Shown piece after piece: positions 1 through 42,795 of a DNA stretch of 42,795 nt. A program made the position numbers and the translations under genes. Origin of the DNA: Reclinomonas americana ATCC 50394 (taxonomy: Eukaryota); contig PS015537.1 in NCBI GenBank assembly GCA_048213135.1, positions 1-42,795 of the forward strand, written 5' to 3'. Each line of letters starts with the position of its first letter. Position 1 is the stretch's first letter. The notes below the pieces were generated by a model that saw only the letters and a program-made list of their open reading frames with translations, was not told the DNA's origin and made no database searches.

Positions 1-962
1 AAGCAGCAGCAGCAGCAGCCGCCGCCGCCTGCTGCTCTCGCAGATACTCCTCGATTAGTGCATCCTCCTGCGCCTCCACCGCTGCCTTCTTGTCCAGGTA
101 CTCCTTCCAGATGCGCCGGCGTCGGCCAAAGATCTGTGTGTGTGCGCGAGAGATCCTGGTGAGGGAGAGGGAAAGAGGGAGTACGAAGGGCAAGGGCTGA
201 TCTACCTCTTCTTCCTCTCTTCACTTCTCCCCCATTCTCTTCTTCCTCTTGTTTCTTCCTCTCTTCTCCTCTGACTGCATTCTCTTTCTCTTCTTCTTCT
301 TCTCACTGCATTCACTCTTCTCCTCTGGCTGCATTCTTCGTGCTTGCTGCTTCTCTCCCTCTCTCTTCTTATATCTCTCGCCTTCCTTTCTACTCTCTCT
401 CACTGCGTGAGATGGTGAGGGAGCGAGAGAGAGAGAGAGAAGGAGTGAGAGGGAAAGAGCTAATGCCTTTCTCTCTCTCTCCCCTCTTCTTCTGCTCACC
501 TCTCTCACCTTGTGACTATTCTCTTCGTGCTCTTTCTGCTTCTCCCTCTTCTTCTTCTTCTTCTTCCCTCTTGCTCCTTCTCCCCCTTCTCCCCCTTCTC
601 CCCCTTCCTCCTCCTCTCTCTCTCTCCCTCTCTCTCTGCCTCTTTCCACAGCCTGCATCTGCGTGGAAGATGCAATCTCCGCGGACTTGCTGAATGATTC
701 ACTCACATCAAATGCCGAGTAGAGACCATATCCAAAGCCAACGAAGCTGCCAGCGGCGATAGTGCCAACTGTGTGTGCAAGTGTGTGTGAGAGTGAGAAT
801 GTGTGAGAGAGTGTGCCAAGAGAGAGAGATGCGAAACTGCCGAGCTTGAACAGAATGCCCGTCTGGACAGCTGCGTTGAGGTGAAGGAGTGAGTAAGAGA
901 GTGTGTGTGAGAGAGAGAGAGCAGAGTGTGCACACGAAACGATCGGGTCCAAAGCGGCCCAT
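1..962 (-). CDS. Small single-TM hypothetical protein, multi-exon, 3' end runs off the window
   Basis: Spliced: MGRFGPDP-VQTGILFKLG-IGTIAAGSFVGFGYGLYSAFD-IFGRRRRIWKEYLDKKAAVEAQEDALIEEYLREQQ. Donors at 940 (C|GTTTCG), 837 (A|GTTTCG) and 706 (T|GTGAGT, a 573-nt purine-rich intron ending at 134). No family recognised. Confidence 0.55.
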
Positions 963-1186
963 GGTTGTTGTGTGCAAGAGAATGAGTGTCCTGCAAAGTC
1001 GCAACGTCGCCGGAGTGACAAGCGAGAAAGAAGAGGAAGAACAAGAAGAACTGCAGTTGGCGAGTGAGGCTGTAGCCATGCGTGAGGCTCGTCGACGACG
1101 AGTGCAAGTGGAAGTCAGCGACAACGAAGCGCAGGACATCATCGCACACTCATTCGCTCTCAACTTAACTGCTCTCTCGTTGAGCC

Positions 1187-2305
1187 ATGGCTGTCGAGTT
1201 TCACGGTCGTCGTCTTCACCAACTTGAATGTGATCCGCTGTGCCTTGCCGTCACTCCGGATGGGCAACACCTAATCGCAGGGACGAGTGACAATGATGTG
1301 CTGGTGTGGTCACTGGTGAACGGGGAACAAGTGCGCCGACTGGAGGGACACGCTGATTATGTGTGGTCTGTTGCCGTCACTCCCGATGGTCAGCATGTGG
1401 TGAGCGGGAGTGAGGACAAGACAGTGCGTGTGTGGCTGCTGGCGACTGGTGAACAAGTGCGACGACTGGAGGGACACACTGCCACGGTGCTCTCAGTGAC
1501 CGTCACCCCTGATGGTCAGCGCATCGTGAGCGGAAGTCACGACAAGACAGTGCGGGTGTGGTCGCTGGTGAGCGGAGAAGAGGTGCGACGATGGAAGGGA
1601 CACGCTCAAGGGGTGCATTGTGTCTCCGTCACACCGAATGGTGAGCTCATTGTGAGTAGTGGTGGTATGTATGACAGGAATGTGCGCGTGTGGTCCGTGG
1701 AGAGTGGCGAGGAGCTAGGACTGTTCGTCACGGGTCTTGTGTTCGGGACGTCTTCTGTCGCCGCCACTCCCGATGGACTGTACGTCGTTGGCGGAGGTCT
1801 TGATACCATGGTGCACGTTTGGTCGCTTATCGAGGGAGACGACATTGATGGGCAGCTGTTGAGGGGACACGATAATACCGTGCTCTGTGTGACCGTCACT
1901 TGTGATGGACTGCACATAATTAGCGGAAGCAGTGATAAGACCGTGCGTGTGTGGTCACTGGCGAGTGGTGAGGAAGTCCGGCGGTTGGATGGACATACAG
2001 GGGAGGTGCGGGCTGTCGCCGTCACTCCCGATGGCCAGCACATCGTGAGTGCGAGTGGCGACCTGTCGATCCGACTGTGGTCCACACAACTCGGTGCTGC
2101 CAGGCGCGAACTGCTTACGTCACTGCTGGCGATGCGCACTGTGCAGGGCATGCAGCCGCCGTCCGCTGACGGAGAAAGCGATCGGCGATGTCTGGTGGAG
2201 ATTGTGATGCGATGTTTCATGGTCGAGGAGGCTCAGGTTGTGGTGCACCGGTGTGTGCAAGCTGGTCAGTTTCTCCAGTTGGATGAAGGAAATGTTGACT
2301 GGTGA
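1187..2305 (+). CDS. Intronless WD40-repeat beta-propeller protein (7 repeats, 372 aa)
   Basis: Single ORF with repeated GH...V..V.VTPDG..IVSGS.DKTVRVWSL units, followed by a ~70-aa helical C-terminal tail. Confidence 0.93.
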   Translation: MAVEFHGRRLHQLECDPLCLAVTPDGQHLIAGTSDNDVLVWSLVNGEQVRRLEGHADYVWSVAVTPDGQHVVSGSEDKTVRVWLLATGEQVRRLEGHTATVLSVTVTPDGQRIVSGSHDKTVRVWSLVSGEEVRRWKGHAQGVHCVSVTPNGELIVSSGGMYDRNVRVWSVESGEELGLFVTGLVFGTSSVAATPDGLYVVGGGLDTMVHVWSLIEGDDIDGQLLRGHDNTVLCVTVTCDGLHIISGSSDKTVRVWSLASGEEVRRLDGHTGEVRAVAVTPDGQHIVSASGDLSIRLWSTQLGAARRELLTSLLAMRTVQGMQPPSADGESDRRCLVEIVMRCFMVEEAQVVVHRCVQAGQFLQLDEGNVDW

Positions 2306-2433
2306 CTGCGTCATGACGGTGCTGTTCATCATTGTGTGATGCAGTCGTCTGTGGTCATTGGCATGCCTCGTCTGCGTCTGTCTCTCTTCTTGAGTAAAGA
2401 AAACAACTTATTAGTACTACATTCTCATTTCGA

Positions 2434-4847
2434 TTACATCAAGTCCACCAACATCTTCACGCCCAGATCCCAGTCCACGTTGTCGGGATCCGTCAGCTTG
2501 TACGCGTCGTACCACGACTGGTCGGCCTCAAAGTGCACACCCGACACGGCCACCTTGCCTCCCTTGGTCCCGTAGTTGGTCATCAGCGCCGCAATCGAAC
2601 CGTCCGAGTACTTGCCGTACACGGTGTAGGCCGACGACGGGTAGAAGTAGGGACCCTCCTGGAAGTACACGCTGCGCGCCTTGCTCGTCGGCACCAGCCA
2701 CGTGACGGGGATGACCTGATCGTTGGTGTACTTGACGGGTGTCTTCGTAAAGTAGTCGAGGTCGGCGTTCAGCAGTTCCAGCGCCTTGATGGTGCCGTTG
2801 TCGTCCATCCAGGTGCCGGCCAAGAAGCCGCCCGCGCAGACGCCAAAGTAGCGCTTGCCGCTCGCCACAAAATTCTGCAGGCGCGTCACCACGCTTTTCC
2901 ACTTGCTGGCACCGACGGCGTTGTAGACTTGCATGGTGTCGTCGCCACCAGGCTGCGCGTACACTCGAGCAATGTCGAATGTGGTGGTGGTGGTAGTCGC
3001 CGTCAGGTCGGTCGGACCAACATACTTTGTGGTGTAGCCGGCGCGCTGGAAGAGGGCGGCCAGGGACTCGGCACACCCCGTGCACGCACCGGGGCCTTTG
3101 TAGACGAGAGCAAGTGGAGCAGGGTCCTGCACGATCAGCGCGCGAGAGATGAGCAGCCGCGACGAGTGGGGTCTGGTTTTGCAGAATATTACAGGGACGC
3201 AACTGTGGATTTCACCGAGCACGCTTGACCAGTCCACCCAGAGTTGCAAGTGCAGACGCCTGATGCCGAGCATGAGGCGGTATTGGCTGCCACGCAGAAG
3301 CAGTTGGCACTGCGCACAGAGGTGAAAGATGAGCAAGAGCCAGATGACAAACACGCACAGAGAGAGAGAGAAAGAGACTCAAACTCACCACTTGTTGTTC
3401 TGGCAAAACTGGCCGCTGGTGCACTGCGTGCCGCCGCACACTGGCCCCGTGCCGGGATTCGTGGCGTTGCTCAGCGTGATGCTGAGGTTGTACGCCTGAA
3501 TGCTGAGGGGCGTGGTGGACGACGAGAACACCTTGATGTAGAAGGGGCCCTTGGTGGCGCTGACAACGGCGGCCGGCAGCGTGAAATTGGTCAGCACCTC
3601 GGCCGCTCCCGCCGCGTTGCCATTGACGGTGGCCAGCACAGTTGTACCGTCCGACGACAGGAGGAGGAAGCCGAGGTTGAGCACGTTGGCCGGGTTGTAC
3701 GTGGTGGTGGAGGTGGGGCACGTTCCCTTGGTGGTCGACGGCCCAGAGGACGACGGTCCAGCAGCTGTGGCATACGGTGCGACGCTCGACGGCGCAAGGT
3801 TGATGGTGACAGCGCCCGAGGCGGTGGAGAACTGCGACATAAACACAGAGCGACGGGTTACAAACTGCGCGGGCGAGGTTCAATGGTGGTGATTGCAAAC
3901 CTTGAAATAATCCACGTCCGAAGGCACATCGATGCTGGCGGCGTACGTGTTCGCAGTAGTGCTGGTGGCGAGAGTGCCGAGGGAGGTTGCCGTCGCCACA
4001 GTGTCGTTGTCCTCTGTGTGGTGGAACGGGGAAGGGAATGAGCGACAAGTCACACAACCCTTCTCATTACTCCCCTCCACCACACTCACCATAGTTATCG
4101 CCGTACAGCGACTGCGCCGCAAGAATGTCGTCAAACTGGGGGCCATCAAAGGCCACCGACAGGAACGGCTCCATCAACTTGGTCTGCGAAACGGGGCACA
4201 CATTCGCCAGGCTGCGCAGCGCAAAGGAAGATGAGTGATGAGTTGGACAAGCCAGATCACGCGAGTGAGGAAGCGTGAGATGAAGACGTACCCCAGGTTG
4301 CGTCCGAGTGCCTGCGCCACCACGTTGCGGAAACCGCGGTATGTGTTGCCAGTGGCGGTCGTCGACGCGAACCACGTATCGGTGGCGTCGAGCACAATCT
4401 GTTCACCGCAAGCAGGCACAGAGTGAGAAACACGCAACGCTGCGCACTGCATGCGTGCATGTATGAACGAAACATCGCCACCACTCGTTCCCGGCGGGTA
4501 CGTGAACGCCAGCATGTTATTGTTGCCGTCCAGGGCCTTGGCACCAATGCGAATATCGCCGCGCTTGGTCAGCAAGCCGGGCGAGGTGGGGAACACGGCA
4601 CCATCGTCGTTAGCCTCGTACACAAAGGTGATGCCGGTCTTGGCGCTCCACGCATTGAAGACACTGCGTGAAGGTGGAGGTGAGACAAGCACAGAGTGGA
4701 CGAGAGACAGGGAGACAGAGTGACGGAACGTGGTGAACTGCGCCTGCCAGGTGGCGCGACTGTAAATCGAGTCGAGCCACGCAAAGAGCTTGCTCGGCGC
4801 CGCCTTGTCCGCGCCAGTGGAAAGGACGCTGGGGATGTTGGTGCCCT
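2434..4847 (-). CDS. Fusion of a degenerate matrixin (M10-like, no Zn ligands), a PPC-like beta domain, a Cys-rich/EGF-like segment and a BPL_N (class I glutamine amidotransferase-like) domain; 5' end missing in the gap
   Basis: Exons read EGTNIP...LFAWLDSIY...VFNAWSAKTGITFVYEANDDG...RGDIRIG...GGD|IVLD...FRNVVAQALGRNLG|LANVCPVSQTKLMEPF...GPQFDDILAAQSLYGD, then SIDVPSDVDYFK, then CSASGVCTCNSGWTGQAC. Intron 3203-3127 joins this to DPAPLALVYKGPG...QPGG...YFGVCAGG...SGVHFEA. Confidence 0.8.
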
Positions 4848-5078
4848 CTATAGTGACGCAACACGTGAGCCACAACGACGATCTCTCCTGTTGTCTCGCN
4901 NNNNNNNNNNNNNNNNNNNNNNNNNNNNNNNNNNNNNNNNNNNNNNNNNNNNNNNNNNNNNNNNNNNNNNNNNNNNNNNNNNNNNNNNNNNNNNNNNNNN
5001 NNNNNNNNNNNNNNNNNNNNNNNNNNNNNNNNNNNNNNNNNNNNNNNNNNNNNNNNNNNNNNNNNNNNNNNNNNNNNN

Positions 5079-5106
5079 AGAGAGAGAGAGACACAGAGAC
5101 AGAGAC

Positions 5107-5143
<37 letters not shown>

Positions 5144-5319
5144 GACAGAGACAGAGAGAGAGAGACAGTGAGAGAGAGAGACAGTGAGAGAGACAGAGAG
5201 AGAGACACACACAGAGAGAGAGAGAGAGACAGAGAGAGAGGAGGGAGACAGATAGAGAGACAGAGAGAGAGAGAGAGAAACAGAGTGAAAGAGAGAGTGT
5301 GTACGTGCGTCTCTCTCTG

Positions 5320-5586: not shown

Positions 5587-8097
5587 TTATCTCATGCCGA
5601 GTGTGGTGGTGAGGATGATGGCGCATACGGAGCCGCCGACCAGGCCCAGATTGATGCCAAGTGACTGCATTGCAGGGGGTTGTGAGTTTGTCATAAAGAG
5701 ATCGAAGTCGAGCAATTGCACGAAACGAGGATGATGCCGGCGTGCTCCATGTCTTCCACGGGAAGGTCGCTGGCACCTCGCATTGCGGCCAGTGCTGCAT
5801 TTCGCTTCCCGGTGAGCAGCAGTAGCGAGGGGGACAAGCACATGGGGGATGAGAACGCAACTGTCGAACCAGCCGTTCGAGAAGCCAAAGACAAAGACGA
5901 GGACGATGGGCACGACTGGCGAGGTGATTAGTGGCGGGAGTACGCAGAGGATCAGCAGCGGGATCAGCAGGAAGCGGAGCGACACGCCCACGACGACCAG
6001 GCTGCGCTGTGGCATCCACAGACGACCCGCGGTGAAGCGGCCGGTAAAGTCCATGAAATCCCACACCGACTGCGGTGGGAAGGCGCAGTGAGAAGGCAAG
6101 CTCTTCTATCATCTTCTCTGTTTCCTGTTCTTGTTCTTCTCTCCTCCTCCTGCTATCCTTCTGCTTCTTCTTGCTTTCTTCTTATTCTTCTGCTTCTTCT
6201 TCATCATCATCTTCTCCTCGTTCCTCTACTTCTTTCTTTCCTCTTCTTCTTCTCCTTCTTCTTCTTGTTCTCTCCTTCTCCGTCTTCTTCGTCTTCTCCT
6301 CCTCCTCCTCCTCCTACTTCTTCATCCGTCCTCTTCTTCGCCCCTCTCCTGTCCTCCCTGTACCTTCTCCACCTTTGTCTCCTCCTCCCTTTCCCCTCCT
6401 CCTCTTCCTTCACCTTCTCCTCCTTTGCTTCCTTCTTCTTCTTCCGTCTTCTTCTTCTCCTCTCTTCCTGCCCTCCCCGTGCCTTTTCCACCATTGTCTC
6501 CTCATCCCTTTCCCCTCCTCCTCCTCCTCCTTCTTCTACTTCCTTCTCCTCTTTGCCCTCCTCCTCAGCCGTGGCCGTCTCCTTCTTTGTCTTCTTCTTC
6601 TTCTTCTTCTTCTTCTTCTTCTACTCCTCCTCCTCCTCCCTCCCTCTTCCCCCTTCCCCTCCATCCCTTCTCCTCGATTCCCTTCCACGCACCAGAAGCA
6701 TAATGGGATACCAATCCTCGGCCCAGTTGAAACCCGACGGCACCGCCACCACAATGCCGGGATACACGGTCAGGGAGACGAAATAGCCGAGCAGAATGGC
6801 CAGGAACATGCGCCACATCTTCTTGAACACGCGCCACGTGTCGGAGAACTTGGTGCCGTACTTGCGTCTCGAGGTGGCTGGAGGGGTCGGGCGTTGATGT
6901 GAGCGACACTTCCGCAGAAGCAACATCGGGGCCTTTGTGTGGCAGGCGTACCTGGCGCATTCGGATCGGTGGACGAGCCGTTGGACGAGCTGTTGGGTCT
7001 CGAGGCCGGATCCTCGTCATCGTCGTGGTAGATGAGCACCTTGCCGTCTCCTGCGTTGTTGCCGTGGTACTCGCGCGCCAAGTAGTGCCGTGCAAATGCC
7101 ACATTCGGCAGGCACAGGTACAACACGAGGCAGGTGAAGATGGCGGCGCCGGTGATGGCAAAGTAGATTAGCGACGAGATGCCCTTGTCGAACACGGCCT
7201 TGGTCAGCACTCGAATAATGGCCACCGTCAGGCCAGCCACGCCGGCTCCCGTCAGTGCCGCGCGGGTGTACGTGGGTGGAAATAATGCCGCCAGGCCGAG
7301 TACGGAGGCATTGAGGACGCCGGCGAGGACGCCCAGCACGAAGAGACCGCCGCATGTCAGCCAGAAAGCCAGGTCCTTGGAGTCGAGCAGCAGCGGCCAC
7401 AGTGGCGTCACCAGCACCGTGACCAGTTGCAGCAGGAACGAGACGACAATGCGTGACTTGATGGAGGTGCGTTTGGCGAATAGAATCACGGGGAAGTACA
7501 CCAGGAACCTGCGCGACGTGAGAGGTGAGAGGAGAGCAGGGGAAGCGCGATAGAGTCGCACACAAACCCTCCCTGTCAGAAAGGAACACGGAGTGAGATG
7601 GACGCGGTGGGATGCGTGGAACAATGGCATAAGGACGCAACAATGTTGTAGCTGGTGGCGATGGACTGCACAATGTCGCTCTCGGGTGGAAAGTGGTCTG
7701 CGCGCAAGAAGATGAGAACACGCGCAACGCGAATGATGTAGGCGCCATTCACCTCTCAAGTAGTCCACGGCGGTGATGAAGCTGCGAATCGGGTCAGAAA
7801 CGACGAGCAAAGACAGCAAGGCAACAGGAGATACCAAACCTGTAGAACGGCAACACAAACGTGCCTCCGAGCAGGGTCCTGTGCCATGAGATGAGCTCGA
7901 AACACAACAGACAGCTCCCCTTCCCCTCCCAACGCAACATGCAAATGAGAGTCAAGTTTAGCTGCGTATGCACGCATGAGAAACCACACAGACAACCCTC
8001 CTCACCGCTCACGCGTCACGCAACTCGATCGCGCAGTTCCCCCGCCTTGCCATCCTCCGTCACATGATGCACCTGCGGCACCACCTGATGCATCCCG
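5587..8097 (-). CDS. Equilibrative nucleoside transporter (ENT/SLC29 family), main body; exon 1 probably at 10025-10219 on the mis-oriented contig
   Basis: Spliced ELRDR-LNLTLICM-TLLGGTFVLPFYS-FITAVDYLR matches the ENT N-terminal signature. Also LAALFPPTYTRAALTGAGVAG, FVSLTVYPG, DFTGR, GFSNG and AGIIL-SLGINLGLVGG. Confidence 0.92.
6100..6680. repeat. Intronic polypyrimidine/polypurine (CTT/CCT) low-complexity tract
   Basis: Read directly; lies in an ENT intron. Confidence 0.9.
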
Positions 8098-8852
8098 NNN
8101 NNNNNNNNNNNNNNNNNNNNNNNNNNNNNNNNNNNNNNNNNNNNNNNNNNNNNNNNNNNNNNNNNNNNNNNNNNNNNNNNNNNNNNNNNNNNNNNNNNNN
8201 NNNNNNNNNNNNNNNNNNNNNNNNNNNNNNNNNNNNNNNNNNNNNNNNNNNNNNNNNNNNNNNNNNNNNNNNNNNNNNNNNNNNNNNNNNNNNNNNNNNN
8301 NNNNNNNNNNNNNNNNNNNNNNNNNNNNNNNNNNNNNNNNNNNNNNNNNNNNNNNNNNNNNNNNNNNNNNNNNNNNNNNNNNNNNNNNNNNNNNNNNNNN
8401 NNNNNNNNNNNNNNNNNNNNNNNNNNNNNNNNNNNNNNNNNNNNNNNNNNNNNNNNNNNNNNNNNNNNNNNNNNNNNNNNNNNNNNNNNNNNNNNNNNNN
8501 NNNNNNNNNNNNNNNNNNNNNNNNNNNNNNNNNNNNNNNNNNNNNNNNNNNNNNNNNNNNNNNNNNNNNNNNNNNNNNNNNNNNNNNNNNNNNNNNNNNN
8601 NNNNNNNNNNNNNNNNNNNNNNNNNNNNNNNNNNNNNNNNNNNNNNNNNNNNNNNNNNNNNNNNNNNNNNNNNNNNNNNNNNNNNNNNNNNNNNNNNNNN
8701 NNNNNNNNNNNNNNNNNNNNNNNNNNNNNNNNNNNNNNNNNNNNNNNNNNNNNNNNNNNNNNNNNNNNNNNNNNNNNNNNNNNNNNNNNNNNNNNNNNNN
8801 NNNNNNNNNNNNNNNNNNNNNNNNNNNNNNNNNNNNNNNNNNNNNNNNNNNN

Positions 8853-9140: not shown

Positions 9141-9206
9141 CACGCGCACAATGAGCGACACCACCAAATCGCCACAAGAAACGCAGAAGAGAGAGGCAGT
9201 CGCAAC

Positions 9207-11078: not shown

Positions 11079-11954
11079 CCCTCCTCGGCAAGGACAAGTG
11101 GCAGCGTCGTTTCGTGCAGGTGCACGAGCATTACATTCTGTACGCGAAGAAGGCGGGCGCGGTGCGTTGTCTTACACCCTTCCCTCTGTCGACCCTCTAT
11201 CGACTCTCAATGGAGATCGCTGACCTTCTCTTGTCTGCGCAACGCAGACGACCCCATCGGGAGTCATTCCGCTGCTGCCCGTCGGCACCGTCAAGGAGTG
11301 CACCAAGACCGAAGGTCGATTCCGCGACTGCTTCGAGGTGGACCAGACGACGGTGGCCGCCTCGCCCAGTGGCGCCACCGGCAGCGCCTCCGCCGTCACC
11401 ATGACGACCACCACGGGATCGTCGTCGCTCTCCGGTCGTGTCGGCAAGAGCCGCTGCTTTGTCGTGCGGTCGCCCATGTCGGTGCTGAAGACGAGAACGG
11501 TGCGCCTCCCCAAGCTACAGTGCCTTGCGTAGCTCGTATCTTGACACTACTCCTAATGCAGGCCATTGTGACCGAGTCCACACTAGACGAGCTGCTGGCC
11601 GTTTCCTGCGCAGGCGGTGACTCGTCGCCACTGCGACCGCACCTGCTCGGCGCCCGATCGTACTACTTCCAGGCGGCCACCGAAGACGAGCGCAAGGAAT
11701 GGGTGTCAGTCATCCGCAACAACCTCAGCATCACTCGAGTTGCGTGCAACAAAAGAACACAAGCTCGTTGTGCTGGGCACTGAACGTCGCCACACTTGCA
11801 GGGTGGTCTGTCACGTGCTGCAGCTGCTGTGCGTCAAGCCATGCAATCCGTGGCCTGTGGCGTGGAGGGCATCAACTGGCAAGCAGTTCTCGACGAGCTG
11901 TACCCACCGGTGGCTCGAGCAGCGCAGTTGGCAAGGCAAAAGGCTGCAACGTAA
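11079..11954 (+). CDS. PH-domain protein, 3' exons
   Basis: LLGKDKWQRRFVQVHEHYILYAKK-TTPSGVIPL...CFEV...RSYYFQAATEDERKEWVSVIR; last intron A|GTTGCG at 11739; stop TAA at 11952-11954. Confidence 0.85.
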
Positions 11955-12032
11955 AGTAAAGGCGCAAAAAAAGGGCGTCCTCTCGTCCTTTGTTCTTCGT
12001 TTCTCTCTTGTTGTGAGAGAGCGCGTGCAGCC

Positions 12033-15000
12033 ATGGACGGGTACTTCTTCGGCAGTGCAGCTGCTGCTGTGGAGGACGCCGAGGCAGCTCGCAAAGCAGA
12101 GATTGAGCGCATTGCAGAGCATTGGGATGGTGTGTGTCTCTCACTCTCTCTCTCTCTCTGTGTCTCTCTCTCACACGCGCGCAAGCAGCATTCAGCTTGG
12201 ATGCAGTGCGAGGAGATCTCTTTGCAATGACCACCGAGTCAGCAGAGTGGAAAGAGGCGGCAATGCAGTCGCGGAAACGACTCGGAGAGCACACTCGAGG
12301 TGTGTGTGTTCTCTCTCTCACACACACTGTCTGCTGCCTCTCTCTCACACATGTGTGAGACACAGCATTTGCCACACTGAGCGATGCAGAGAAGCTCGGC
12401 AACGCTCTTCGCCAGTTGCTGAAAGAGTATCAACATGAGGTCGACAGTCTCTTCAAACGCGATGTGGTGCGCCACTCACACTCACAGGGAGAGAGAGGAG
12501 CGCTCTCATCGTGCAAGTGCTGACTCCTCTGCTGCGGCCACAGAAACTATCGCAGTTCGTGATTGAGTTGTACGGAAAGCTGCGGGATCTTCCGGATCCG
12601 ACAGTGGCTGTCAGTGTCGCGCGAATGCAGTATGATGGGGGATCGTTCATTGCGAGAGCGTTGGGCGGAGGCAGCAGTGGGGCGGCGGGTGCTGCGTCGG
12701 CTGAGGTGGCGCAGCTGCGACGGACGGCGACCGATCTGCAGGCGCAGGTGGAGCGCATGGAGAGTGAGTTGAATGCGGTGCATGAGCGACACGCGGCAGC
12801 GGTGATGCATGAGGTGTGCGCGTGTGTGTGTGAGAGGATGTCGCAGGGAGTATGTCTTGGAATGGCTCACTGTGTTGGGAGCAGCGCGAGGAGGCTGTGC
12901 GAGTGGCGCAGGCGTCGTGGGCGGAGAAGAGCAAGCTGAATGAGCAGGAACACTTGCAACGAGAGCAGTCGCTGTTGCGTGATGATGTTGGTGCGCTGTG
13001 AAAGGGGGAAGGGGCGCAACTGAGTGGCAAGTGTTCGTGGACAGGTATACGCAGCTGAATGAGTTGCAACGGGAGTGCGCCGACTTGCGGCAGACGCAGG
13101 ATCGGGTGAGTGCGCAGGCGTTGGATGCGCGCACTCGGCTCGAGTCGCAAATGGCCATCAAGGATCGCGAGGCCGAGTATCTGCGTGAGGAGGTGGAGCG
13201 GCTGCAGCAGCAGCTGGAGGAGGCGTTGCATGCGTCGCGTAGCTCGGCCGCCGCCGCCGCTGCCTCGCAGTACTCTGCGGCGGCCATGCATGAGCAGTCG
13301 CTGCAGATGGAATGTTGCGTGGATGTGGATGGTCACGTGTGTGTCGCACCCTCTGCTAACCGCCGTCCACAGTGGACCAGAGGAGAGCTGAAGTTTCCAA
13401 CCTGGAGTCGCAGCTGGATGCGGCCGAGAAGGAGCTGAGGGAACGGACACAGAGAGCGCAAGCCGAACGCACCGAGTGGGAGACGCGGTTGCGAGAGACG
13501 CAGGCACAATTACGCGCCGCAGAGAAGGAGGTATGTGCGTGTGTGTGGGCGAGGGAGAGGGAGTGTGTTCTTGCTTACGCCGTCACAGATCCACAGCCTG
13601 GCCGTGAAACTGCGACTCTTGTCGCCCGAGGACGGTGACGAGAGTGCGGCCATTGCCGACATTCGCGCATCGTCGCTGGAGAATATGTTGTCGAGCAAGA
13701 ACCGACGGTTGCTGGCTGAGAACACACAGCTCAAGGTTTGTTTTCGGGGCGCACGCTCTTGTCGCTAATGTGCGCTGACTTATCCTGTTCCAGTTGCGAG
13801 TGCAAGAGTTGATGACGGACGGTGACGAGCTGCGCTTGCAATTGGGCGCTGCCAACGAAGCCGCGCAGTCGTACAAGGCTCAAATCACCACACTCGAGGC
13901 ACAAGTGCAGCGGCTGCTGTCTTCATCAAACCCCTCGTCTCCGACGGCTGGTGGAGCTCGAAGTGCAGTGGGATCGTTGTCGGTATGTGGTTGAAAAGGG
14001 AAAAGCACGTGCAATGTTTTTCACTCAAAAAAGTCTCGCTCTGCGTGCAGAATCGTGTGGCCCCGTCAGACAATGACGACGCGGAGTCCACCAGCGGCAG
14101 CATCCTCCTGCAGGCCCTCGATGGCGACGGTGTTGCATCATCGCCTGTCCACTCTCCACGTTGCGTCGAGACAGTTTTTCTTGTTTACGAGTGCGTTGCT
14201 TTCTCACTCACTCGCTGTGATGCGCGCAGTGTCGGACTTTGGCTCGGCGACTGCATCACCACCGCGGGCTGCACCGGTGCGCTGCGGCTGTACTTCCTGC
14301 TTCTTTGTTCATTTTCCTGACTCGTTCCACCAGGCGGATCCACCCAACTCCCGGCGTGCAGCAGCCCCTGCTGGCCCGGCGGCCGACAGTGCCATTGTGA
14401 ATACCATTGCACAGCAGCGTGATCGCCTGCGTGAGAAGAATCAGGATCTGGAGCAGGTGCTGAGCTCGCATTCGACTTCCCAGCCTGCGAAACCCTCACT
14501 CACTGTGCATCACAGCAAGTGGAGTCGCTCCAGCAGCAAGTGCGTGCCAAGGGTCGCGAGATTGTGGCACTGACGGAAGACAACATTCGGTTGTACGAGC
14601 AGCTGCGCTTTGCGCGGTCGGCCACCAGCAAGGTGAGAGCGCGCACTGCTGCATGCAGCCCCTTCCTCGCCGCCACTGACCTATTGCGTGGGCAGGACGA
14701 CGACGACAGTGAAGCAGGTGGAAGTGGGTCGGCATCCTCTGCTGCCGCGGCTGGACTTAATCGGAGAGGCACCGGTGCACCCGACATGGAGGCCAAGTAT
14801 GCAGCCATTTATGAGCATCGCCTCGATCCATTTGCCGCATTCCACCAAAAGGTTTTTACGTGCAGTGTTGGGTGGCTGAAGGACGCCTGAGAACTCATCC
14901 CCTTCCCCTCTCACACGCACACAGGAGCGAGAGCGACGGATTGCTTCGCAAGGAGCCGCCGATCGGGTGGTTTTCAAAGCCAGCGAGATATTCCTCTCGA

Positions 15001-15202
15001 GTCGCGTGGCCCGCCTGTTTCTGCTGGGCTGTTGCGTGACTGCAGCTCTCCCCTTCTCTTTGTTTCCCGGTGCTAATCGTGTTGCACAGATGCCCTGCTT
15101 CTGCATCTGCTGGTTGGCGTGACGCTGTATTCCTACATGCTTGGCGGTGCCGGGAGCAGAAGAGGTGGTGGTGGTGGCGGCGGTGTGGGAGGAGGGGGAT
15201 GA
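12033..15202 (+). CDS. CASP: Golgin CASP/Coy1 (CUX1 alternatively spliced product homolog), 15 exons
   Basis: SRKRL, LLKEYQHEVDSL..R...LYGKLRDLPDP, coiled coils, QRDRLREKN, DNIRLYEQLRF, KYAAIYEHRLDPFAAF, and a C-terminal TM LFLLGYALLLHLLV with the conserved Tyr/His. Confidence 0.92.
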
Positions 15203-35146: not shown

Positions 35147-35183
35147 ACGCGAACGTGAAATTAAATGTCGCTTTCAATCTTTT

Positions 35184-37239
35184 TTACATTAATACCACGT
35201 CGTTGGCGCCGGCGAGTAATGCCAGCGTCGGCTGCTCGAGGTGAGAAAAGCGAGCGGATGCCTAAACAGAGGGAAGAGGAAAACGCACGCAACTCGGTGA
35301 AAGTGCGCGTAGTACGGTGATTCACGGTACCGCAGGTACGAGTCGGTTTTCTGTGCCGAGGAGCGTCAGGCGTTTTGTGCGCAAAGTGTGTGTGCATGGG
35401 TGGCACACCATGAGGTAGGCCACACTGTTGTAAGCGGCCACAAACGGAGTCAGAAGGTCGCTCGGTCTCGTGCTCGATGGATTCTGCGTGCGAGAGAGCG
35501 ATGAGCTGAAGAGATGGCGGAGGAGACAGAGGCGCTTCTCTCGCGCAACAATGGGAACTACCGCCATGGCAGCGGCGCGCTCTCGGGCTGAAATATTAAG
35601 CGAGTGCGCTCCCTCACTGTCGATAAACTCGGCACGCACTTCTGCACAGCGGTCGGCCGTCTCCTTGGTCGACAGTCGCCCACGCTCCTGCAAAGAATAA
35701 TGGAATTAGAACATCACGTCACAGCAGGCCGACTGACACACAACAGCGCACCACGTCCAGTCGCAGCGTGGTGATGATTTCGTAGAACAGCAGGTTCTCT
35801 GTGAAGCACGCGCAGCGGTGAATGGAAGCCGCGATGGATCACACGATACTGCACACACCTTCCGAAGCCTCGTCGCGCAAAAAGCTCAAGAACGCCTGCT
35901 TCTCTTTCGGATCCCCGACTGTGCGCTCAAACGAGCTGTCGAGCAACGCAGCCGACGCGAAACCGTCGCGCGGGCGCATGGCAAACAGAATCAACAAGTG
36001 CGGCATGAGATCGGNNNNNNNNNNNNNNNNNNNNNNNNNNNNNNNNNNNNNNNNNNNNNNNNNNNNNNNNNNNNNNNNNNNNNNNNNNNNNNNNNNNNNN
36101 NNNNNNNNNNNNNNNNNNNNNNNNNNNNNNNNNNNNNNNNNNNNNNNNNNNNNNNNNNNNNNNNNNNNNNNNNNNNNNNNNNNNNNNNNNNNNNNNNNNN
36201 NNNNNNNNNNNNNNNNNNNNNNNNNNNNNNNNNNNNNNNNNNNNNNNNNNNNNNNNNNNNNNNAAGGAGGGGGGAGAGGGTGGAGGAGAATCACCGTCAC
36301 ACGCAACTCGCATCAAGAGACTGGTGGTCGAGTCCACTGCACCAGACTTGCGCACCTGATAGAGCTGTCTCACAAGCATTGCAGGAATGACGACTGCCAC
36401 CCCCAGCAACACCACGTTGCCCTTGAGAAACACGACAGTATGAGCCATTCGTCGCAAGCTGTGTGCGCAGCAGGAATGAAGAAACAACTGACCACCACAA
36501 ACAAGGAGAATCCGCCGAGATTGTTGTTCAGGCGCACCACCGGCACCAGCGACACCCACATGAGTCCGGCCGCGGCCAGAGCTGCACCCACCAGCGTGAT
36601 CGCCAACAGCAGGCGCTCCTTCTTCGCTGAGTAGTCCGCCAGTCGTCTCAACAAGCGAACATAGACCCACACTGCGCAAGAATGAGGGAGAAGCCACCAC
36701 AGACTGTCGTCGCGATCACTCAACTGGCATAGGTGACTGTCAGCACCTGTGTGATGTTGGCCACCAGCGTGGTCCATCTTCCCGATTGGATGGCGTGCTC
36801 GGAGCACAAGAACCCATTGGTTGTGGTCGACAGAATGAAGAACCACGCAGAAACGACTGTGTGATGCATGAGAGAGTGTGTGAGTCAGTGTGAGAGAGGC
36901 ACGCTCACTCACTCACTCACCGATGCAGTGCGAGGCGCCCGCGAACCAAAACACGACTGTCGACATGGTGAATGCAACCCACAGCATGCGCAGTGTGAAT
37001 CGCAGAGATGATCGCCACCAGGAGCCGCCTTGTTGTTTCCTCTTGGTGTGCTTGTGTGCACTCATCGTCTCGCCCTTGTCGTTGTCAGTGTCGTCATGAT
37101 GGTTGTTGTCGTCGTGAGGAAGGCGACGAACGACTGTGAAGACATCGACGATCCAACGTGCGAGATCGGCGGCGCCCACTAATAGGTAGAGAATGCCATC
37201 CACGAGGAACACGATTGTCGACACCTGGTCGCATTGCAT
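35184..37239 (-). CDS. 7TM-RGS protein, paralog 1 (one exon lies in the gap)
   Basis: Several TM helices, then AFLSFLRDEAS-ENLLFY...AEFIDSEGAHSLNIS...AYNSVAYLM-KTDSYLRY, ending PTLALLAGANDVVLM*. Confidence 0.82.
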
Positions 37240-37344
37240 CGCGCAAACACAGTCAAAAGGCCTCAAAAGGTGTGTCCTGTGAGAAACTGATTGCTGCGAG
37301 CGGACATGCATGATTAACAGGATTGTACATTCATTACAAGGGAA

Positions 37345-40300
37345 CTAGAGCACAACGCCAGCAGTGCCGGCGAGTAATGCGATTGTGGGCTGCGAGTGTG
37401 GGGTATGAGTGAGGACGAATGGAAAGAACAGGCGAGAGGAACGCAACTCTGTGATAGTGCGCAAACTGATCGGACTGGCGCCAGCGTGGGAAGCAGTCGG
37501 TCTTCATCAGGTACGAGACGCTGGTGTAGGCGCGCTCGAATGGGCGTAGCATGTCGGATGTTGATACACCGGGTCGATCCGACTGCAAGGTAGTGAGCAA
37601 CAATAGGCAAACAAAGACGATGGGGTGATAATGACGCACCACATCGGTCATGGCAAGTTCGCGATCGCGTGCGGCAATGTTGATCGACGACTCGCCGTCG
37701 GGTGAAATATACGTGTCGCGGATCTTACGGCAGCGTGCTGCGACGTCGGAGAGCGTCACTCGGCTCTTGGCCTGCGACGAAGGAGACGAGGAGGAGAATG
37801 GGGTTTAGTTGGGTGCTGTTAAACAGAGCAGGGAGAGAGAAACCCGCAGCGACGCACAATATCTTCGCGCAGTTCATCCACTGCCATACGGAACAGCAGG
37901 TTTTCTGTGCGGCAGAGGGAGGTAAGTTGTGAGCACAGTGCAAGAGGGGTACAGTCTCCACACCTTGTGCCATCTCGTCGGCGAGGAACCCGAGAAAGGC
38001 CTGCAAGCACCAACAGCGTGAGTGCACAGACGATCCCTGACACAGCGATGACGGGCAACTCCGAACCTGTCGCTCGTCTTTGACAGCCATCATCTCCTCA
38101 AATGAAGAGTCCAACAGCGCCGACTGCTTCACCGAGTCACTCGGACGCAGCACGAAGAGCATGATGACGTGCGGAAGCCAGTCGCCGACCAAGAACATTG
38201 ACGTGGAGGTGGGCATGGACTGCGAATGCTTGCGGATTGAGTGGTGGATGAAGAACATGACACACAAGTGGGTCGAGAAACGCAACTTTCTTCCACTGCA
38301 CCGTCGCCAGAATGAGCATGAACGTGATAGACACGGTCAGCAGGGTGGTCGATAGGGCTTGCTGCAGCGCAACGGGAGTCAGTCAAGGAGAAAGGCGGAG
38401 AAGGAGAGCGGATGGAGAGAGAGAGAGAGAGGTAGAAAGGGAGAAAAGAGAGAGAGGGAGACACTCCCATGAAGCAGCAAGACAACAACGGATGACAACG
38501 CACGCGACAGGAAGAACGGAACGATTTCCGTAGAATGGATGCCATAAACAAGCGGCAAGAAGACAACAACAGACGACATCTCGACATATAGAGCTTTCAC
38601 TCCTGTCTGACAGAGAGGATGAGATCCCACGTGACGAAGAAGCGATATCACAGAATTGATGCCATCCACACGCGGTAAGAAGACAAGAATGGGTGACAGA
38701 GATGCCATTCCACGCAGCAGGAAGAAGTGAACACCAACTCAATGCCCACATAATAGATGCCATCCATGTGCGGCAAGAAGAGTAGAACAGATGCCATTCT
38801 CCGAATGACAGAAACGCCCGTTCCTATCTAACAGACAGGAAGACAACCCACGCGGAATAACGATGAACACCAACTCAATGCCCACAGAAGGGATGCCATC
38901 CACACGCGGCAAGAAGCCAAGAGCGGATGCCATTTTCAGGCACCAGAAAGACGAGAACACTCATTCTCCTACGACACAGCAGCAAGACAAGAGACACGCT
39001 TTGAACACCATCATTCCCTGCCAACGAACCCTCAGCACAGCCTTATCACCAACGCGCAGGCGGCCTTGTCGATGCAACCGCAACATGCTGACCAGCGAAC
39101 TGATCGGCGCCAGCAACGACACCAGCAACAGCGCACCATAACCCTGTCACATCCACCATCAGTTTCCGAACAAGAACCCCACCACTTCCTTCGCCTCTGC
39201 CCTCCCCATCGCAACTGCAATCAACAACGAGTACATGACCGGCTGGTGATCCAAGTCCGGGTACGCATCCTGAATGAGATAGGAGCCCCCGATAGCAGCC
39301 GCCACCAACGCCAGTGCCACCAGCACCGAGGCCGCACGAGCGACTCTCACCGACAGCGGCACGAGTACCACCGCCAATCGCAGGTACACAAAGAGCTGGA
39401 GCGAGAAGTTGATGAGGAGAATGATCTGGCCCACCAGCAGCATGATCACCATCCAGTTCTGAATGCCCGCCCATCCGTTGCTGGCGTCGTTGCAGTCGAA
39501 GATCGAGGCAGTGCCTGCTCCGTAGGCCGTCATGACTGTGGCGCGAGAATGAGAAGGGGGGAGGGGGAGGAGGAGGGGGAGGAGAAGGGAGAGGAAGGCA
39601 GGGTAAGGAGAGGAGAATGTGAGAGGATGAAAGACACAGTGACGAAGGCGAGGGAGATGGAAGGGAGGAGAGAGGAATGGGGGCAGGGATGAAGACATGA
39701 AGAGAGACATAGAGACACTTGTGGTTAAGGATCTAACGGGCGTGAGACGCGAAGATTGAGGAAATACGAAGGCGGAGAGGAATGAGAGGAAAGATGCGGT
39801 AACAGACACAGTGATGAAGGCGAGTACGGATGAAGACATGAAGACAAGAGAGTGATACACTCATGGTTAAGATTCTGAACACAGTCATGACTGCAACGCG
39901 GGCGGGAGAAGCGAAGAAAGAAGAAAGAGAAAATAGGAAGGCGGAGAGGAATGAGAGGTGGGGAAGAGAGGACACAGTTGCTGAGGAAGAGGAGAGAGGA
40001 AGGGAAGGAGGGGATGAAGACGAGAGAGGGGGGCACAGCTGCAGTCAGTCGTCACTGCGTGATGGAGAGGGTGAGAGGAAGGGAAGAGAGCGACGATAAC
40101 AACAGACGGAGGCACAGCTGCAGTCATCAGTTGATACAGGCACAACGCAGATGTGAGGGAGAGGGAAGGGAGGAGAGAGGAGAATGCTGGAAAGAGGAGA
40201 CTTGGCATCAGTGCATCAAAGGATCGACGCAAATCCTCACTGCAGAGCACAAGGGAGAACAGAGCAACAGGAGAGAGAGTACTCTGCAATCACTCCCTCC

Positions 40301-40604
40301 GCTTCCCCCTTGCACTTTGCTCTCTCTCTCCCTCTTCTCTCTCTCATCTCATCTCCCTCTCATCTCCCCCCTCACCAACACAATGTATAGTCCCAAGGAA
40401 CCAGAACGCAGACGTAGGCAGCGTCACAACCACCACACACAGTCGACGAAAACGGCCTCCGCATGAACGACTTTCCGTGCGAGTGGTCCCCCTTTGCCAC
40501 GCCTTGTACACATCAAAGATCCAGCGCAAGAGCAGACAGGCCGCAGTCGTGCTGTAGACCACTGCACAGAGAATGAGAAGCCCTTCGTCTCCGCACACGC
40601 CCAT
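37345..40604 (-). CDS. 7TM-RGS protein, paralog 2
   Basis: Exon 1 MGVCGD...RWIFDV...FWFLGTIHCV is homologous to paralog 1. RGS domain AFLGFLADEMAQENLLF...TYISPDGESSINI...LMKTDCFPRW; C-terminus PTIALLAGTAGVVL*. Confidence 0.82.
38450..38960. repeat. Degenerate intronic tandem repeat (core GATGCCATCCACACGCGGCAAGAAG)
   Basis: Core copies near 38538, 38658, 38756 and 38892; TGAACACCAACTCAATGCCCACA near 38728 and 38864. Confidence 0.7.
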
Positions 40605-40744
40605 TCGAAAGACGATCTTCGGAGGACACACAGGAGACGGAGGACGTCTTGTCAACTAAAAGTTTGTTCTTTGCTTTATGGTGCAAGGATGATGTAGGTA
40701 GGGATTGGTGGGGGAAAAAAGAATAGGATTGGGAATGGGGAGCA

Positions 40745-42795
40745 TCAGAACACTTCGGGACCGTCGAAATCGTCGTCCTCGCCGTAGTTCGGGCCCTTGA
40801 AGATGTCAAAGGAGTGGCTGCTAAGCTGTGGTCTTACAACTGATGGGCTGCGTGAGCCGGCAGCGGCGCCTGCGCCATCGGCGGCGGCGGCAGCAGCAGG
40901 TTGTTTCCTGGCGGCGCGTTCCTGGGCGGCTGCGCGCTGTGTGGTGACCAGTGCTTGAATGCGGCTAAAGGAGGCCTCCGCGTCGTCCATCTGCGTGCCT
41001 TGCTTCGTCAACAGGCGCAGCACCTCGGGCTGGAAACCCGTGAGGAACAGATCGAGGCCTTGTCGGTCACTGGTCGGGTCGGCGGTCTTCTTGTTGCCGT
41101 AGCCGTGCAGGTCAATGACGGTCTGTGTACCAGCGGATGAGCACAAGAGTCACCAGTGAGCCCAACACGAGGACGCGTGCACATACGCACCAGCTTCATG
41201 TTGGGATTGACGTGAGCACGATAGAACTGGATCGCCGCTCGAACATCTTCGTCTGCCGTCAGCGCCGTGTCGGTGAGGAAGATCAAGTAGTCAATCATTC
41301 GATCGGTGGTGACGGACTCCTGTAAATCGACAACAATCAGCACGGGGAGGGGAACCACTGACGATGTTCTGCGAATACAACGAACCCGAATGAACTGGAA
41401 CGGGAAGCTGGTTCCGAGGCCGAGCGCACAGTTCACAGCCGAGGCCTTGCTGATAATGTCTTCGGCATCCCGCATCACATCTTCACCTGCATTGTGTTCG
41501 AACACAGTCAGTTCATGATGCAAGATGCGCGAGCGACGGAAAAACAACGCAACGGTGCTCGGGGAAGACGACCTCCTCATCGCAGCGCTGACCCGCCACC
41601 TTTGGAGAGGAAAAGATGCGCACTTCGCGAGAGTCTTCCGGTGACGAATTGCGAATCATGGCAGCCAGTACGGCAGCCGCGCTCAGCAGCGTCTTGGTGT
41701 TGGTGTAGTTGACTGCCTTGTTGCGTTCGAATGTCGCGCATGGGGCTCGCATAGAACCCGACACATCGACAAAGACGACCACGGAGCCCATCAGCGGCTC
41801 CATCGTCGCACGGCCGACCACTTCGAGGGCCTGGCTCAGGCTGCTCTTGTACTCCTGCACCACCTCCAGGGTGGGCACCACCTTCGGATAGGCCAATCGC
41901 TTGTCCCACGGGTCCGCCTTGGCCACGGCGGCGCCGACACGGTTCCTGCGCTCCGCAAGCATGTTTTCTCGCATCGCTCTCCGCTGTCGGCGCAGATAGT
42001 TCCACCGTTCGACCGCGTTGAGGCCACTCACTTGGCCGTGCTTCTCTTGCCACTGCGACCAAAGGAAATGAGCACGTTCAACGAGAAACGCAAGGATCAT
42101 CAGCAAAAGAACACACAAACCAGTCTCAGTCGAGCTTCAGGGACGGAAATCGCTTGACTCGAGCTCGAAAGTGTATTGGTTGACAGTTTGGCCTTGGCAA
42201 TGCGTTCGCGGTCGCGCAGCAACTCGCACACACGCTGGTGGTGCTCGGGGGAGATGCCGGCCTCGATAAACAAGCGCAAATGTCGCACAAGCATCACGTA
42301 CGACCGATACCGGTGATTGTCGATGCTGCAACGAGGCCATGAATATAGGGGAGCGAAAAATGAACACGCATACAAGGCCGCGTACGCAACGCATACTCAA
42401 ACGTCTCGGCCACCGGGCCGCGCTGCGACATGAGCGACACGGGTGTCTCGTACGGCGCCAAGCGCAACCGTGTGCCCACAAGTCTGGGGTCGAACTCGCC
42501 GGTGAAGCCGAGCTGTGACGGGATGAGGAGAGAGATATGAAAGAGGCAAAGGGGAGGAGTGAGAGAGGAAACACGAGACGGAGGCAAGATAAGAGACAAG
42601 GAAACAGGAGAGCACAAAAGGACTCACTGGTGCACGATTGAGGCGAGATGTGCGGGAGGGAGAGAGGGAAACAAAAGCGGATGTACGAAAGCAGGCAATA
42701 GGGGAGAGACTAGCGCAGGTGACTTCGCGATGCACACACAGATGAGGAGAAATGAGCGGAGATAAGAGAGGGGAAAAGCGGACGTACTCAAGTAA
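40745..42795 (-). CDS. TROVE plus vWA protein of the TEP1/ciliate p80 type; 5' end lies outside the window
   Basis: GFTGEFDPRLVGTRLRLAPYET...SYVMLVRHLRLFIEAGISPEHHQRV resembles the TEP1 TROVE segment. vWA MIDAS motif VFVDVSGSM, then LIFLTD and VIDLHGYG. Confidence 0.8.

Follow-up and report, generated by a model that had tools for sequence, protein, structure and literature searches.

Sequence evidence for a second class of 5' splice sites, displaced by one base, in the introns of a Reclinomonas americana contig

We have analysed a stretch of 42,795 bases from Reclinomonas americana ATCC 50394 (contig PS015537.1, positions 1 to 42,795; the whole stretch is called the window below), which by its content is eukaryotic and dense in genes and introns, and we find that its 5' splice sites (donors) fall into two classes that use the same seven-base word one base apart. 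Beside ordinary donors there is a second, shifted class, typically GTTGCGT, in which the consensus lies one base further downstream of the cleavage site. By our estimate about 33 of about 113 introns in the window have a GTTGCG donor, or about 39 of 113 when six sequence variants are included, so that the class would make up about 29-35% of the introns; the denominator comes from our own gene models. A preliminary description of the window had arrived at about 40 of about 120 introns and had located such donors in nearly every gene, and both statements hold, since a GTTGCG donor occurs in 10 of 12 multi-intron gene models, and in 11 of 12 if variants are counted. Its central proposal, that this is a mainstream second donor class with the consensus moved one base downstream, is likewise borne out, and is strengthened by covariation with the last exon base (-1) and by a matching shift on the exon side. 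The best explanation, which we regard as probable though well short of certain, is that one U2-type spliceosome removes GT-AG introns whose two donor classes are distinguished by register alone, the pairing of U1 being shifted by +1 in the second.

Frequency of the motif and its choice as a donor

All 31 coordinates given for the motif in the preliminary description (10 on the plus strand and 21 on the minus strand) begin with GTTGCG on the strand assigned to them. GTTGCG is present 67 times in the window, against 35.1±5.8 in 100 dinucleotide shuffles, none of which reached 67. The heptamer GTTGCGT occurs 34 times against 7.81±2.83 expected, and again none of 100 shuffles reached the observed number. 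Within gene spans (30.8 kb) there are 29 sense and 3 antisense copies of GTTGCGT, 26 of the 29 sense copies are donors in our models, and it is the commonest single donor heptamer in them. A G precedes GTTGCG in only 4 of the 67 copies. Several copies that are not donors sit in the 3' region of introns (e.g., 15985, 38373 and 7728). The hexamer GTAAGT is found only 3 times in the window.

Gene models were produced by a purpose-written finder, a generalised hidden Markov model with codon usage self-trained on the window and with introns as explicit GT...AG segments. Three runs were made: one with neither a donor nor a 3' model; one blind to the donor but with a 3' model of branch motif, YAG and length; and one with a three-class donor mixture trained by expectation-maximisation (EM). 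The trained run is biased toward the motifs it has learned, and so we test the class on the donor-blind run and annotate from the trained one. GTTGCG represents 67 of the 5,073 GTs in the window, and yet it was already the top donor hexamer in the run without donor or 3' model (9 of 75 introns). With the 3' model added, the donor-blind run placed it at 16 of 103 introns (binomial p=6.5e-13 against 67/5073), and in the EM-trained run the figure was 30 of 109, with 25 of the 31 sites in the preliminary description found again. Retaining the GTTGCG introns causes a frame shift or a stop in 26 of 31 cases, and mean codon log-odds change from +0.17 upstream to -0.28 inside and +0.15 downstream, values close to those of 63 ordinary introns (+0.18 before, -0.33 inside and +0.19 after).

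Two donor classes one base apart

The features of the two classes were compared in a high-confidence set of 85 introns, comprising 63 ordinary and 22 shifted-class introns, the latter having been selected for their GT...YAG and branch features. The ordinary consensus is [A/T]G|GT(G/A)(C/A/T)GT: G stands at -1 in 49 of 63 donors and at +5 in 43 of 63, with G, A or T at +3, C, T or A at +4, and T at +6. The shifted consensus is H|GTTGCGT, with T at +3, G at +4, C at +5, G at +6 and T at +7, more rarely GTTTCG, GTTCCG or GTTGAG, and here the last exon base is T in 9 cases, C in 6, A in 6 and G in 1. A single base separates the two words, for the ordinary word read from -1 is G-G-T-G-C-G-T and the shifted word read from +1 is G-T-T-G-C-G-T. 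The displacement extends into the exon, where the shifted -1 position resembles the ordinary -2 position (T21 A20 C14 G8) and the shifted -2 resembles the ordinary -3; after a shift of one base the matrices of the EM classes, and the counts in the 85 introns, align position by position.

The same relationship is present in the high-confidence set of the donor-blind run (76 introns). Where G occupies -1, G is found at +5 in 25 donors and the combination of T at +3 and G at +6 in 2; where another base occupies -1, the corresponding numbers are 4 and 16 (Fisher p=3.8e-7). A G at exon -1 is close to obligatory for ordinary donors, and the 21 sense copies of [ACT]GTGCGT within genes include none that is used as a model donor. 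The six shifted-class variants (GTTTCG four times, GTTCCG and GTTGAG) all have a base other than G at -1. One position is nearly invariant in the shifted class: the C at +4 of the shifted register, which is C+5 counted from cleavage, is present in 15 of 16 shifted donors against C at +4 in 12 of 25 ordinary donors in the donor-blind set (p=0.003); the trained set gives 25 of 26 and 19 of 43 respectively (p=6e-6).

Beyond the donor, the two classes look alike. In the high-confidence set the median intron length is 64.5 nt for shifted and 66 nt for ordinary introns, the distance from branch motif to AG is 14 and 17 nt respectively, and the classes cannot be told apart by branch motif, acceptor context or G+C content. 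All 22 shifted-class introns run from GT to YAG and carry a YTVAY motif at a median distance of 14 nt from the end, these being the features for which they were chosen, and their branch motifs (CTGAC, CTCAC, CTCAT and CTAAC) are those of the main class. Local alignment of intron bodies gives mean scores of 7.05 within the shifted class, 7.69 among ordinary introns and 7.43 between classes, and among 203 5-mers tested in intron bodies none was significantly class-specific after correction. Because length, branch, acceptor and G+C content are shared, and bodies show no extra likeness within the class, we are dealing with a second way of presenting the donor and not with a second kind of intron. 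Acceptors throughout the window have an extended consensus, often (T)GCGCAG|, with C at -3 in 78 of 85 and a CTRAY-type branch motif 14-17 nt upstream.

Junctions placed by protein families and paralogues

Individual junctions were checked by comparing Pfam profile coordinates between neighbouring, unspliced exons. About a dozen are pinned independently in this and related ways, and the remainder rest on frame, coding potential and the motif. The donor at 24106 (+), in phase 0, lies in a THADA homologue for which the preliminary description had proposed the reading LLRG|EP. In the exon before it residues 2-29 match positions 149-176 of the DUF2428 profile, making the last residue position 177, and residue 7 of the exon after it matches position 184, making the first residue 178; the profile is therefore continuous, 177|178, across the proposed donor. 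In two TPM-RING paralogues with donors at 16397 and 18245 (both -), the exon ends at TPM position 82, the split codon (Tyr or His) supplies 83 and the next exon starts from 84. DNA alignment of this pair, and of a second paralogous pair (37447/35293), shows codon-wise conservation up to GTTGCG, indel-rich divergence within the intron, and conservation again at the branch motif and past the AG.

A gene for an equilibrative nucleoside transporter (ENT) supplies further cases. An initial homologue search with the 185-aa ENT exon, intended to find longer proteins, found none, but a full HMMER scan with the same exon returned 742 matches at E up to 0.001, and among the best 150 of these was P0002, an ENT homologue of 445 aa with 42% identity. 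The spliced model protein was aligned with 45 homologues using MAFFT and gaps were counted within ±6 residues of each junction:

ENT junction at 5861: gap-free in 45/45 homologues
ENT junction at 7938: gap-free in 35/38 homologues
ENT junction at 8024: gap-free in 33/36 homologues
ENT junction at 5726 (C|GTTTCGT variant): gap-free in 44/45 homologues

The gap-free alignment claimed earlier across 8024, 7938 and 5861 is thus upheld for nearly all homologues, and the Thr encoded by the split codon at 5861 agrees with P0002. Two short predicted proteins, P0001 and P0003, share 67% and 60% identity with the ENT exon, and each begins no more than a few residues away from its first codon, which suggests that they come from relatives with the same exon boundary; the similarity of P0003 ends after ...AALVG, as though it read into an intron.

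The ENT donor at 7641 is less straightforward, and the trained model missed it. The site proposed in the preliminary description is right if a putative 5-nt micro-exon, GGAGG at 7568-7572, is accepted, but the micro-exon is unproven. With it the protein reads YNI-GG-FLVYF, against YNL-GG-FVVYF in P0002, with Gly-Gly in both, and the two introns (69 nt and 59 nt) are of usual length and have donors that conform to their classes. The rival, which the trained model chose, is a single 128-nt intron ending at 7509, in frame only from the second GT (7636, donor GTCCTT); it would add Val-Ala, with the same spacing as the homologues (gap-free in 43/45). At the first of these two positions Val occurs in 0 of 45 ENT homologues and Gly in 5 of 45. 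We prefer the putative micro-exon and judge the donor at 7636 to be less likely.

Three other sites missed by the trained model are supported by exon frames. The exon at 3204-3308 (-), in the frame that ends at 3204, encodes an EGF-like domain (EGF_Teneurin, 27 bits, E=4.7e-6), and only the GT at 3203 links it in frame to the BPL_N exon; the trained model had chosen the second GT of the heptamer, at 3198, which the EGF-like exon frame rules out. At 27878 (-) the proposed donor links ...AEIYITKGVERSK in frame to a last NOX exon that matches positions 114-155 of the 156 in NAD_binding_6, our own models having ended this gene prematurely. At 14160 (+) our model drew one 202-nt intron, and the earlier arrangement of a 70-nt intron, a 47-nt exon and a 57-nt intron with a G|GTGCGC donor is in frame and stop-free. 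For the CASP-like protein a Tyr codon split T|AT across 15031 (+) had been proposed, and this example holds, as the THADA and ENT ones do: the CASP_C profile (198-231) reaches the end of the upstream exon, the downstream exon being too short for scoring.

Donor sites in the window

The sites are listed below with the runs that chose them (blind, trained) or other support. On the minus strand the first G of the donor is the higher coordinate.

11739..11745, plus: GTTGCGT donor; blind and trained; acceptor uncertain (modelled intron 677 nt)
12974..12980, plus: GTTGCGT donor; trained; 71-nt intron, in-frame stop if retained
13314..13320, plus: GTTGCGT donor; trained; 59-nt intron, branch motif CTAAC
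14160..14166, plus: GTTGCGT donor; from the preliminary description
15031..15037, plus: GTTGCGT donor, phase 1 (T|AT = Tyr); blind and trained
21609..21615, plus: GTTGCGT donor; blind and trained
22758..22764, plus: GTTGCGA donor; trained; 60-nt intron, branch motif CTGAC
24106..24112, plus: GTTGCGT donor, phase 0; blind and trained; DUF2428 profile 177|178
24502..24508, plus: GTTGCGT donor, newly added here; trained
24683..24689, plus: GTTGCGT donor, newly added here; trained
26485..26491, plus: GTTGCGT donor; trained
26661..26667, plus: GTTGCGT donor with G at -1, newly added here; blind and trained
27083..27089, plus: GTTGCGT donor; blind and trained
3197..3203, minus: GTTGCGT donor, phase 0; EGF-like exon frame
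5855..5861, minus: GTTGCGT donor, phase 1; blind and trained; ENT alignment
7635..7641, minus: GTTGCGT donor before a 69-nt intron; requires the putative micro-exon
7568..7572, minus: putative 5-nt micro-exon GGAGG, then a G|GTTTGT ordinary-class donor (7567) and a 59-nt intron
7932..7938, minus: GTTGCGT donor, phase 2; blind and trained; ENT alignment
8018..8024, minus: GTTGCGT donor, phase 0; blind and trained; ENT alignment
9200..9206, minus: candidate GTTGCGA donor; motif only
16034..16040, minus: GTTGCGT donor; trained
16391..16397, minus: GTTGCGT donor, phase 1; blind and trained; TPM profile 82/83/84, same position in paralogue
16785..16791, minus: GTTGCGT donor; trained
17455..17461, minus: GTTGCGC donor; trained; blind model chose an in-frame GT 9 nt downstream (17452)
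17716..17722, minus: GTTGCGT donor; trained; blind model chose an in-frame GT 3 nt off
18239..18245, minus: GTTGCGC donor, phase 1; trained; TPM profile 82|83 (Tyr, split codon)|84, paralogue alignment
27872..27878, minus: GTTGCGT donor, phase 1; in-frame link to the last NOX exon
29249..29255, minus: GTTGCGT donor; blind and trained; Ferric_reduct spacing of 45 positions against 44 residues over three introns
35287..35293, minus: GTTGCGT donor; trained; paralogue of 37447, terminal peptide PT[IL]ALLAG..VVL* after both
35543..35549, minus: GTTGCGC donor, newly added here; trained
36301..36307, minus: candidate GTTGCGT donor; motif only
37441..37447, minus: GTTGCGT donor, phase 0; blind and trained; paralogue alignment with 35293
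38280..38286, minus: GTTGCGT donor; blind and trained
39209..39215, minus: GTTGCGA donor; blind and trained
41547..41553, minus: GTTGCGT donor; blind and trained
42384..42390, minus: GTTGCGT donor; blind and trained
5720..5726, minus: variant C|GTTTCGT; trained; ENT alignment
4467..4473, minus: variant T|GTTTCGT; blind and trained
4723..4729, minus: variant C|GTTCCGT; blind and trained
22093..22099, plus: variant A|GTTTCGC; blind and trained
24383..24389, plus: variant A|GTTTCGC; trained
36718..36724, minus: variant A|GTTGAGT; blind and trained

A further call of the trained model, at 13488, with G before the motif and A at +7, is probably an exonic decoy, with an ordinary GTATGT donor following it.

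Genes of the window

The window has 3,686 N in six gaps and a G+C content of ~58% outside them. The N runs (4900-5078, 8098-8852, 10240-10949, 29936-30914, 31512-32325 and 36015-36263), in several cases next to (GT)n, (CT)n or CT-rich low-complexity sequence, mark this as a draft assembly, and gene models are interrupted at the gaps. Pfam matches to single exons identify, in addition to the ENT, THADA/Trm732, CASP-like and NOX/ferric-reductase homologues and the two tandem TPM-RING paralogues, two RGS-domain membrane-protein paralogues, a Nucleotid_trans glycosyltransferase, a TROVE/VWA-like protein and an EGF-like plus BPL_N-like protein. Two related loci were found in metagenomes, but at 36% identity they are useless for comparing introns. 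In taxonomic look-ups Haptophyta were the most frequent group for one glycosyltransferase exon and the ENT result was mixed, so that no clear taxon emerged.

The product of the gene at 2434-3840 (-) is rich in Ser and Thr in its N-terminal part and has a C-terminal BPL_N or glutamine-amidotransferase-like domain; it also contains one EGF-like domain, encoded by a separate 106-nt exon. The tandem paralogues at 15252-16996 and 17124-18550 (both -) each have a TPM domain, a membrane segment and a RING-H2 finger, with a GTTGCG intron inside the TPM domain common to both; one copy has an additional GTTGCG intron (17722) inside the RING region that is absent from the other. The RGS-domain paralogues at 35161-36006 and 36370-39533 (both -) are neighbours, and both appear to end in a short last exon, PT[IL]ALLAG..VVL*, directly after a GTTGCGT intron, our models having over-extended these last introns (223 and 115 nt). 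Two model introns are outliers against the median of ~65 nt. The 623-nt ENT intron at 6070-6692 (-) is backed by the family alignment (gap-free in 44/45), while the 677-nt CASP intron at 11739-12415 (+) may hide further exons.

Mechanism and alternative explanations

The mechanism that we favour would operate as follows. The U1 snRNP, or whichever factor first reads the donor, would pair in identical fashion with a seven-base word that is the same in both classes, apart from a T that replaces the normal first intron G in the shifted class, where the word would lie one base downstream of cleavage. In the shifted helix the first intron G would occupy the slot of the exon-end G, leaving the T at +2 as the sole mismatch. 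U6, U5 and Prp8 would then cleave before the only GU present, whose G fills the place that exon -1 (G) has in ordinary donors and whose U comes from the substituted T. The motif, its use as a donor at this very base, the covariation with -1 and the 3' signals common to both classes are observed; that the reader is U1, and a single U1 species in both classes, we infer from them. If pairing is counted with the canonical U1 5' end (AUACΨΨACCUG, from passages of PMC4856993), which may not be that of the host, the 27 shifted-class donors average 4.78 Watson-Crick and 1.52 GU pairs when shifted, against 3.00 and 1.07 in the normal register. With the same proviso about the host's own U1, the shifted register scores better in 23 of the 27, while 58 ordinary donors, measured against a U1 that again may not be the host's, make 5.76 and 1.19 pairs in the normal register and 2.60 and 2.24 in the shifted.

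The depletion of G at -1 favours a single U1 that pairs in a shifted register, and speaks against both a dedicated U1 in the normal register and a register with a bulged U. On the first of these alternatives a variant U1 complementary to GUUGCGU would serve the second class in the normal register and the main U1 the ordinary class. The second class is indeed very uniform, with GTTGCGT the commonest donor heptamer, much as U12-type donors are, and hardly any variation is seen in its C at +5 and G at +6; moreover U1 5' ends can change together with the donor consensus, as passages of a preprint (10.1101/2022.06.08.495308) indicate for Entamoeba (ACAAAC) and Mastigamoeba (ACGUAC). But a U1 in the normal register should favour G at -1, as in 49 of 63 ordinary donors, and the shifted class has it in 1 of 22; the exon-side preferences have moved by one base as well, the two classes share their 3' signals, and an Rfam scan of the window gave 0 matches, so that no snRNA gene was found within it. 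We therefore think two such U1 species unlikely. A bulge would let U1 pair with G+1 normally while one U (+2 or +3) is extruded, and GU-U-GCGU can certainly be written as an ordinary GU-GCGU with one inserted U, human bulge registers being documented in passages of PMC4856993. The last exon base would then stay opposite the same U1 base and G would be expected there, when in fact it is depleted, and this makes a bulge quite improbable. A modification of the favoured mechanism deserves more weight, although it is doubtful too. The near-invariant C at shifted +4 is not explained by the canonical U1, which has Ψ opposite, and hints at a changed U1 5' end; a weaker, mismatched helix would need compensation by a pairing base, and the C therefore points to a G in U1 opposite +4. 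Such an end (ACGYACC-like) would match G|GUGCGU perfectly and would give a one-mismatch shifted helix strong enough for a third of introns; alternatively, two U1 species might differ opposite +1. It is possible, at well below even chances, that one or other of these holds.

Two further explanations seem to us highly improbable. Introner families typically show the same ends on many introns, and shifted-class introns do share identical ends, which might have been inherited, without selection, from one mobile intron-generating element ending in GTTGCGT. However, similarity between intron bodies is no greater within the class than among ordinary introns or between the two, no 5-mer survives correction, paralogous introns have diverged except at donor, branch and acceptor, and variants such as GTTTCG obey the same rule at -1. 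A reconstruction artefact, in which the motif is enriched for some other reason and the true donors lie elsewhere, might be suspected because our evidence for donors is drawn entirely from sequence (the window, profiles and homologues), because our models err locally (3198 for 3203, the NOX 3' end and 13488) and because the heptamer contains a second GT at +6. Against this, the donor-blind choice, the six junctions pinned by profile or family alignment (24106, 18245, 16397, 5861, 7938 and 8024), exon frames and paralogues all place the donor at the first G, and a donor at the GT of +6 would put every pinned site out of frame and at 7641 would give a Val that none of the 45 ENT homologues has. 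U12-type introns were also considered as the source of the class. Their consensus is an RTATCCTT donor with a TCCTTRAY branch site close to the 3' end, and they were rejected here because the donor is not RTATCCTT, there is no distinct branch word and the 3' features are those of the main class.

Several points nevertheless count against a shifted U1 register in a single spliceosome, or at least against the numbers attached to it. In addition to the nearly invariant C, U6 would have to pair with a donor that carries one extra base between the GU and the paired stretch. All intron counts depend on our own models of 39 kb of sequence in a single window, the trained run favours any motif it has already learned, and 29 of the 76 donors in the donor-blind covariation set fit neither class, probably through model errors. 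Among the individual sites, 24502 is unpinned, the weak TPR_Trm732_C matches on its two sides being separated by a 5-position gap; 24683 is ambiguous and not pinned by a profile, the blind model having chosen an in-frame GT 9 nt upstream; 7641 depends on the micro-exon; and the candidates at 9206 and 36307 are recognised by motif, the former followed by low-complexity sequence and the N gap at 8098-8852 and the latter opening an intron that enters the N gap at 36015-36263.

Significance

In the textbook account of splicing, cleavage occurs at a fixed position in the helix between U1 and the donor, and shifted or bulged registers are rare exceptions. If our reading is correct, some three in ten introns, in almost every gene, would depart from this rule with a sharper consensus than that of the main class, and register would have to be seen as an evolvable, genome-wide property. 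The genome would then offer hundreds to thousands of natural substrates for studying how U6, U5 and Prp8 set the point of cleavage without reliance on U1; and if a changed U1 or two U1 species were involved, it would be a natural system in which U1 binding is uncoupled from cleavage by one base across the genome. There would also be a practical consequence. Gene finders with a single donor matrix will blur or miss the shifted class, as our own single-class runs did at several sites, and annotations of this organism and its relatives may therefore be systematically wrong there.

Comparison with known systems

The closest analogues are the 5' splice sites with a register shifted by +1 that Roca and Krainer reportedly described in mammals in 2009. 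The likeness is considerable: a GU at the cleavage site is followed by a consensus one base downstream, complementarity to U1 is better in the shifted register, and the intron is otherwise of U2 type. The word itself differs, being the GC-rich GUUGCGU here and GUUAAGU, as quoted in the preliminary description, in mammals. The scale differs more. Passages of Tan et al. (2016, PMC4856993) put the validated non-canonical registers jointly at ~1.5% of human 5' splice sites, whereas the shifted class here comprises ~29-35% of window introns and supplies the commonest heptamer, although it is known here from DNA sequence only.

Departures from the usual donor consensus have been described in other eukaryotes, in each case without a change of register in the passages concerned. 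Those of the preprint (10.1101/2022.06.08.495308) give Entamoeba a GUUUGU donor with a U1 of ACAAAC and Mastigamoeba a GUGCGC donor with a U1 of ACGUAC; these share T at +3 or C at +4 with the window, and offer a precedent for the U1 G opposite +4 that would explain the invariant C, but as described there each has a single consensus in the normal register, while here two registers coexist. The figures that passages of PMC8136499 give for Mastigamoeba (3.4 introns per gene, mean intron length 137 bp, GC 60.7%) do not match the intron density of the window. The same preprint passages report +4C donors with a standard U1 in Thecamonas and Micromonas, and passages of PMC2483917 report GTGCGTG donors with a GACTGACG branch word in Ostreococcus outside chromosome 2. 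Both these GTGCGTG/GYGCGY donors of Mamiellales and the +4C donors of Thecamonas are similar to our ordinary class, which has G|GTGCGT and a CTRAY branch motif, and no shifted class is described for either in those passages of the two sources. The Ostreococcus introns with GTGCGTG belong, according to PMC2483917 in the part concerned, to an intron-poor fraction of the genome, unlike the intron-dense window.

Two other systems partition introns by their donors. U12-type introns likewise form a second, very uniform donor class beside the main one in the same genes, but the shifted class differs from them in donor, in having no branch-site word of its own and in its 3' features. Passages of a recent paper (Open Biol 2025, PMC11732430) distinguish two classes of 5' splice site by their pairing with U5 loop 1 or with the U6 ACAGA box; as in the window, donors of one class depend on a G at the end of the exon (-1) and those of the other on intron positions, with no such G, but those classes, as presented there, keep one register, whereas here the intron consensus is displaced by one base. 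In open-access text we found no description of a genome with a shifted register as a main donor class, although the organism's own genome paper may mention one, and the matches listed for GTTGCG or GUUGCG in such text were of the primer type and included no donor class. The class of mechanism is already known from mammals; what appears to be new is the scale on which it would be used in this window and the GC-rich word through which it is expressed.

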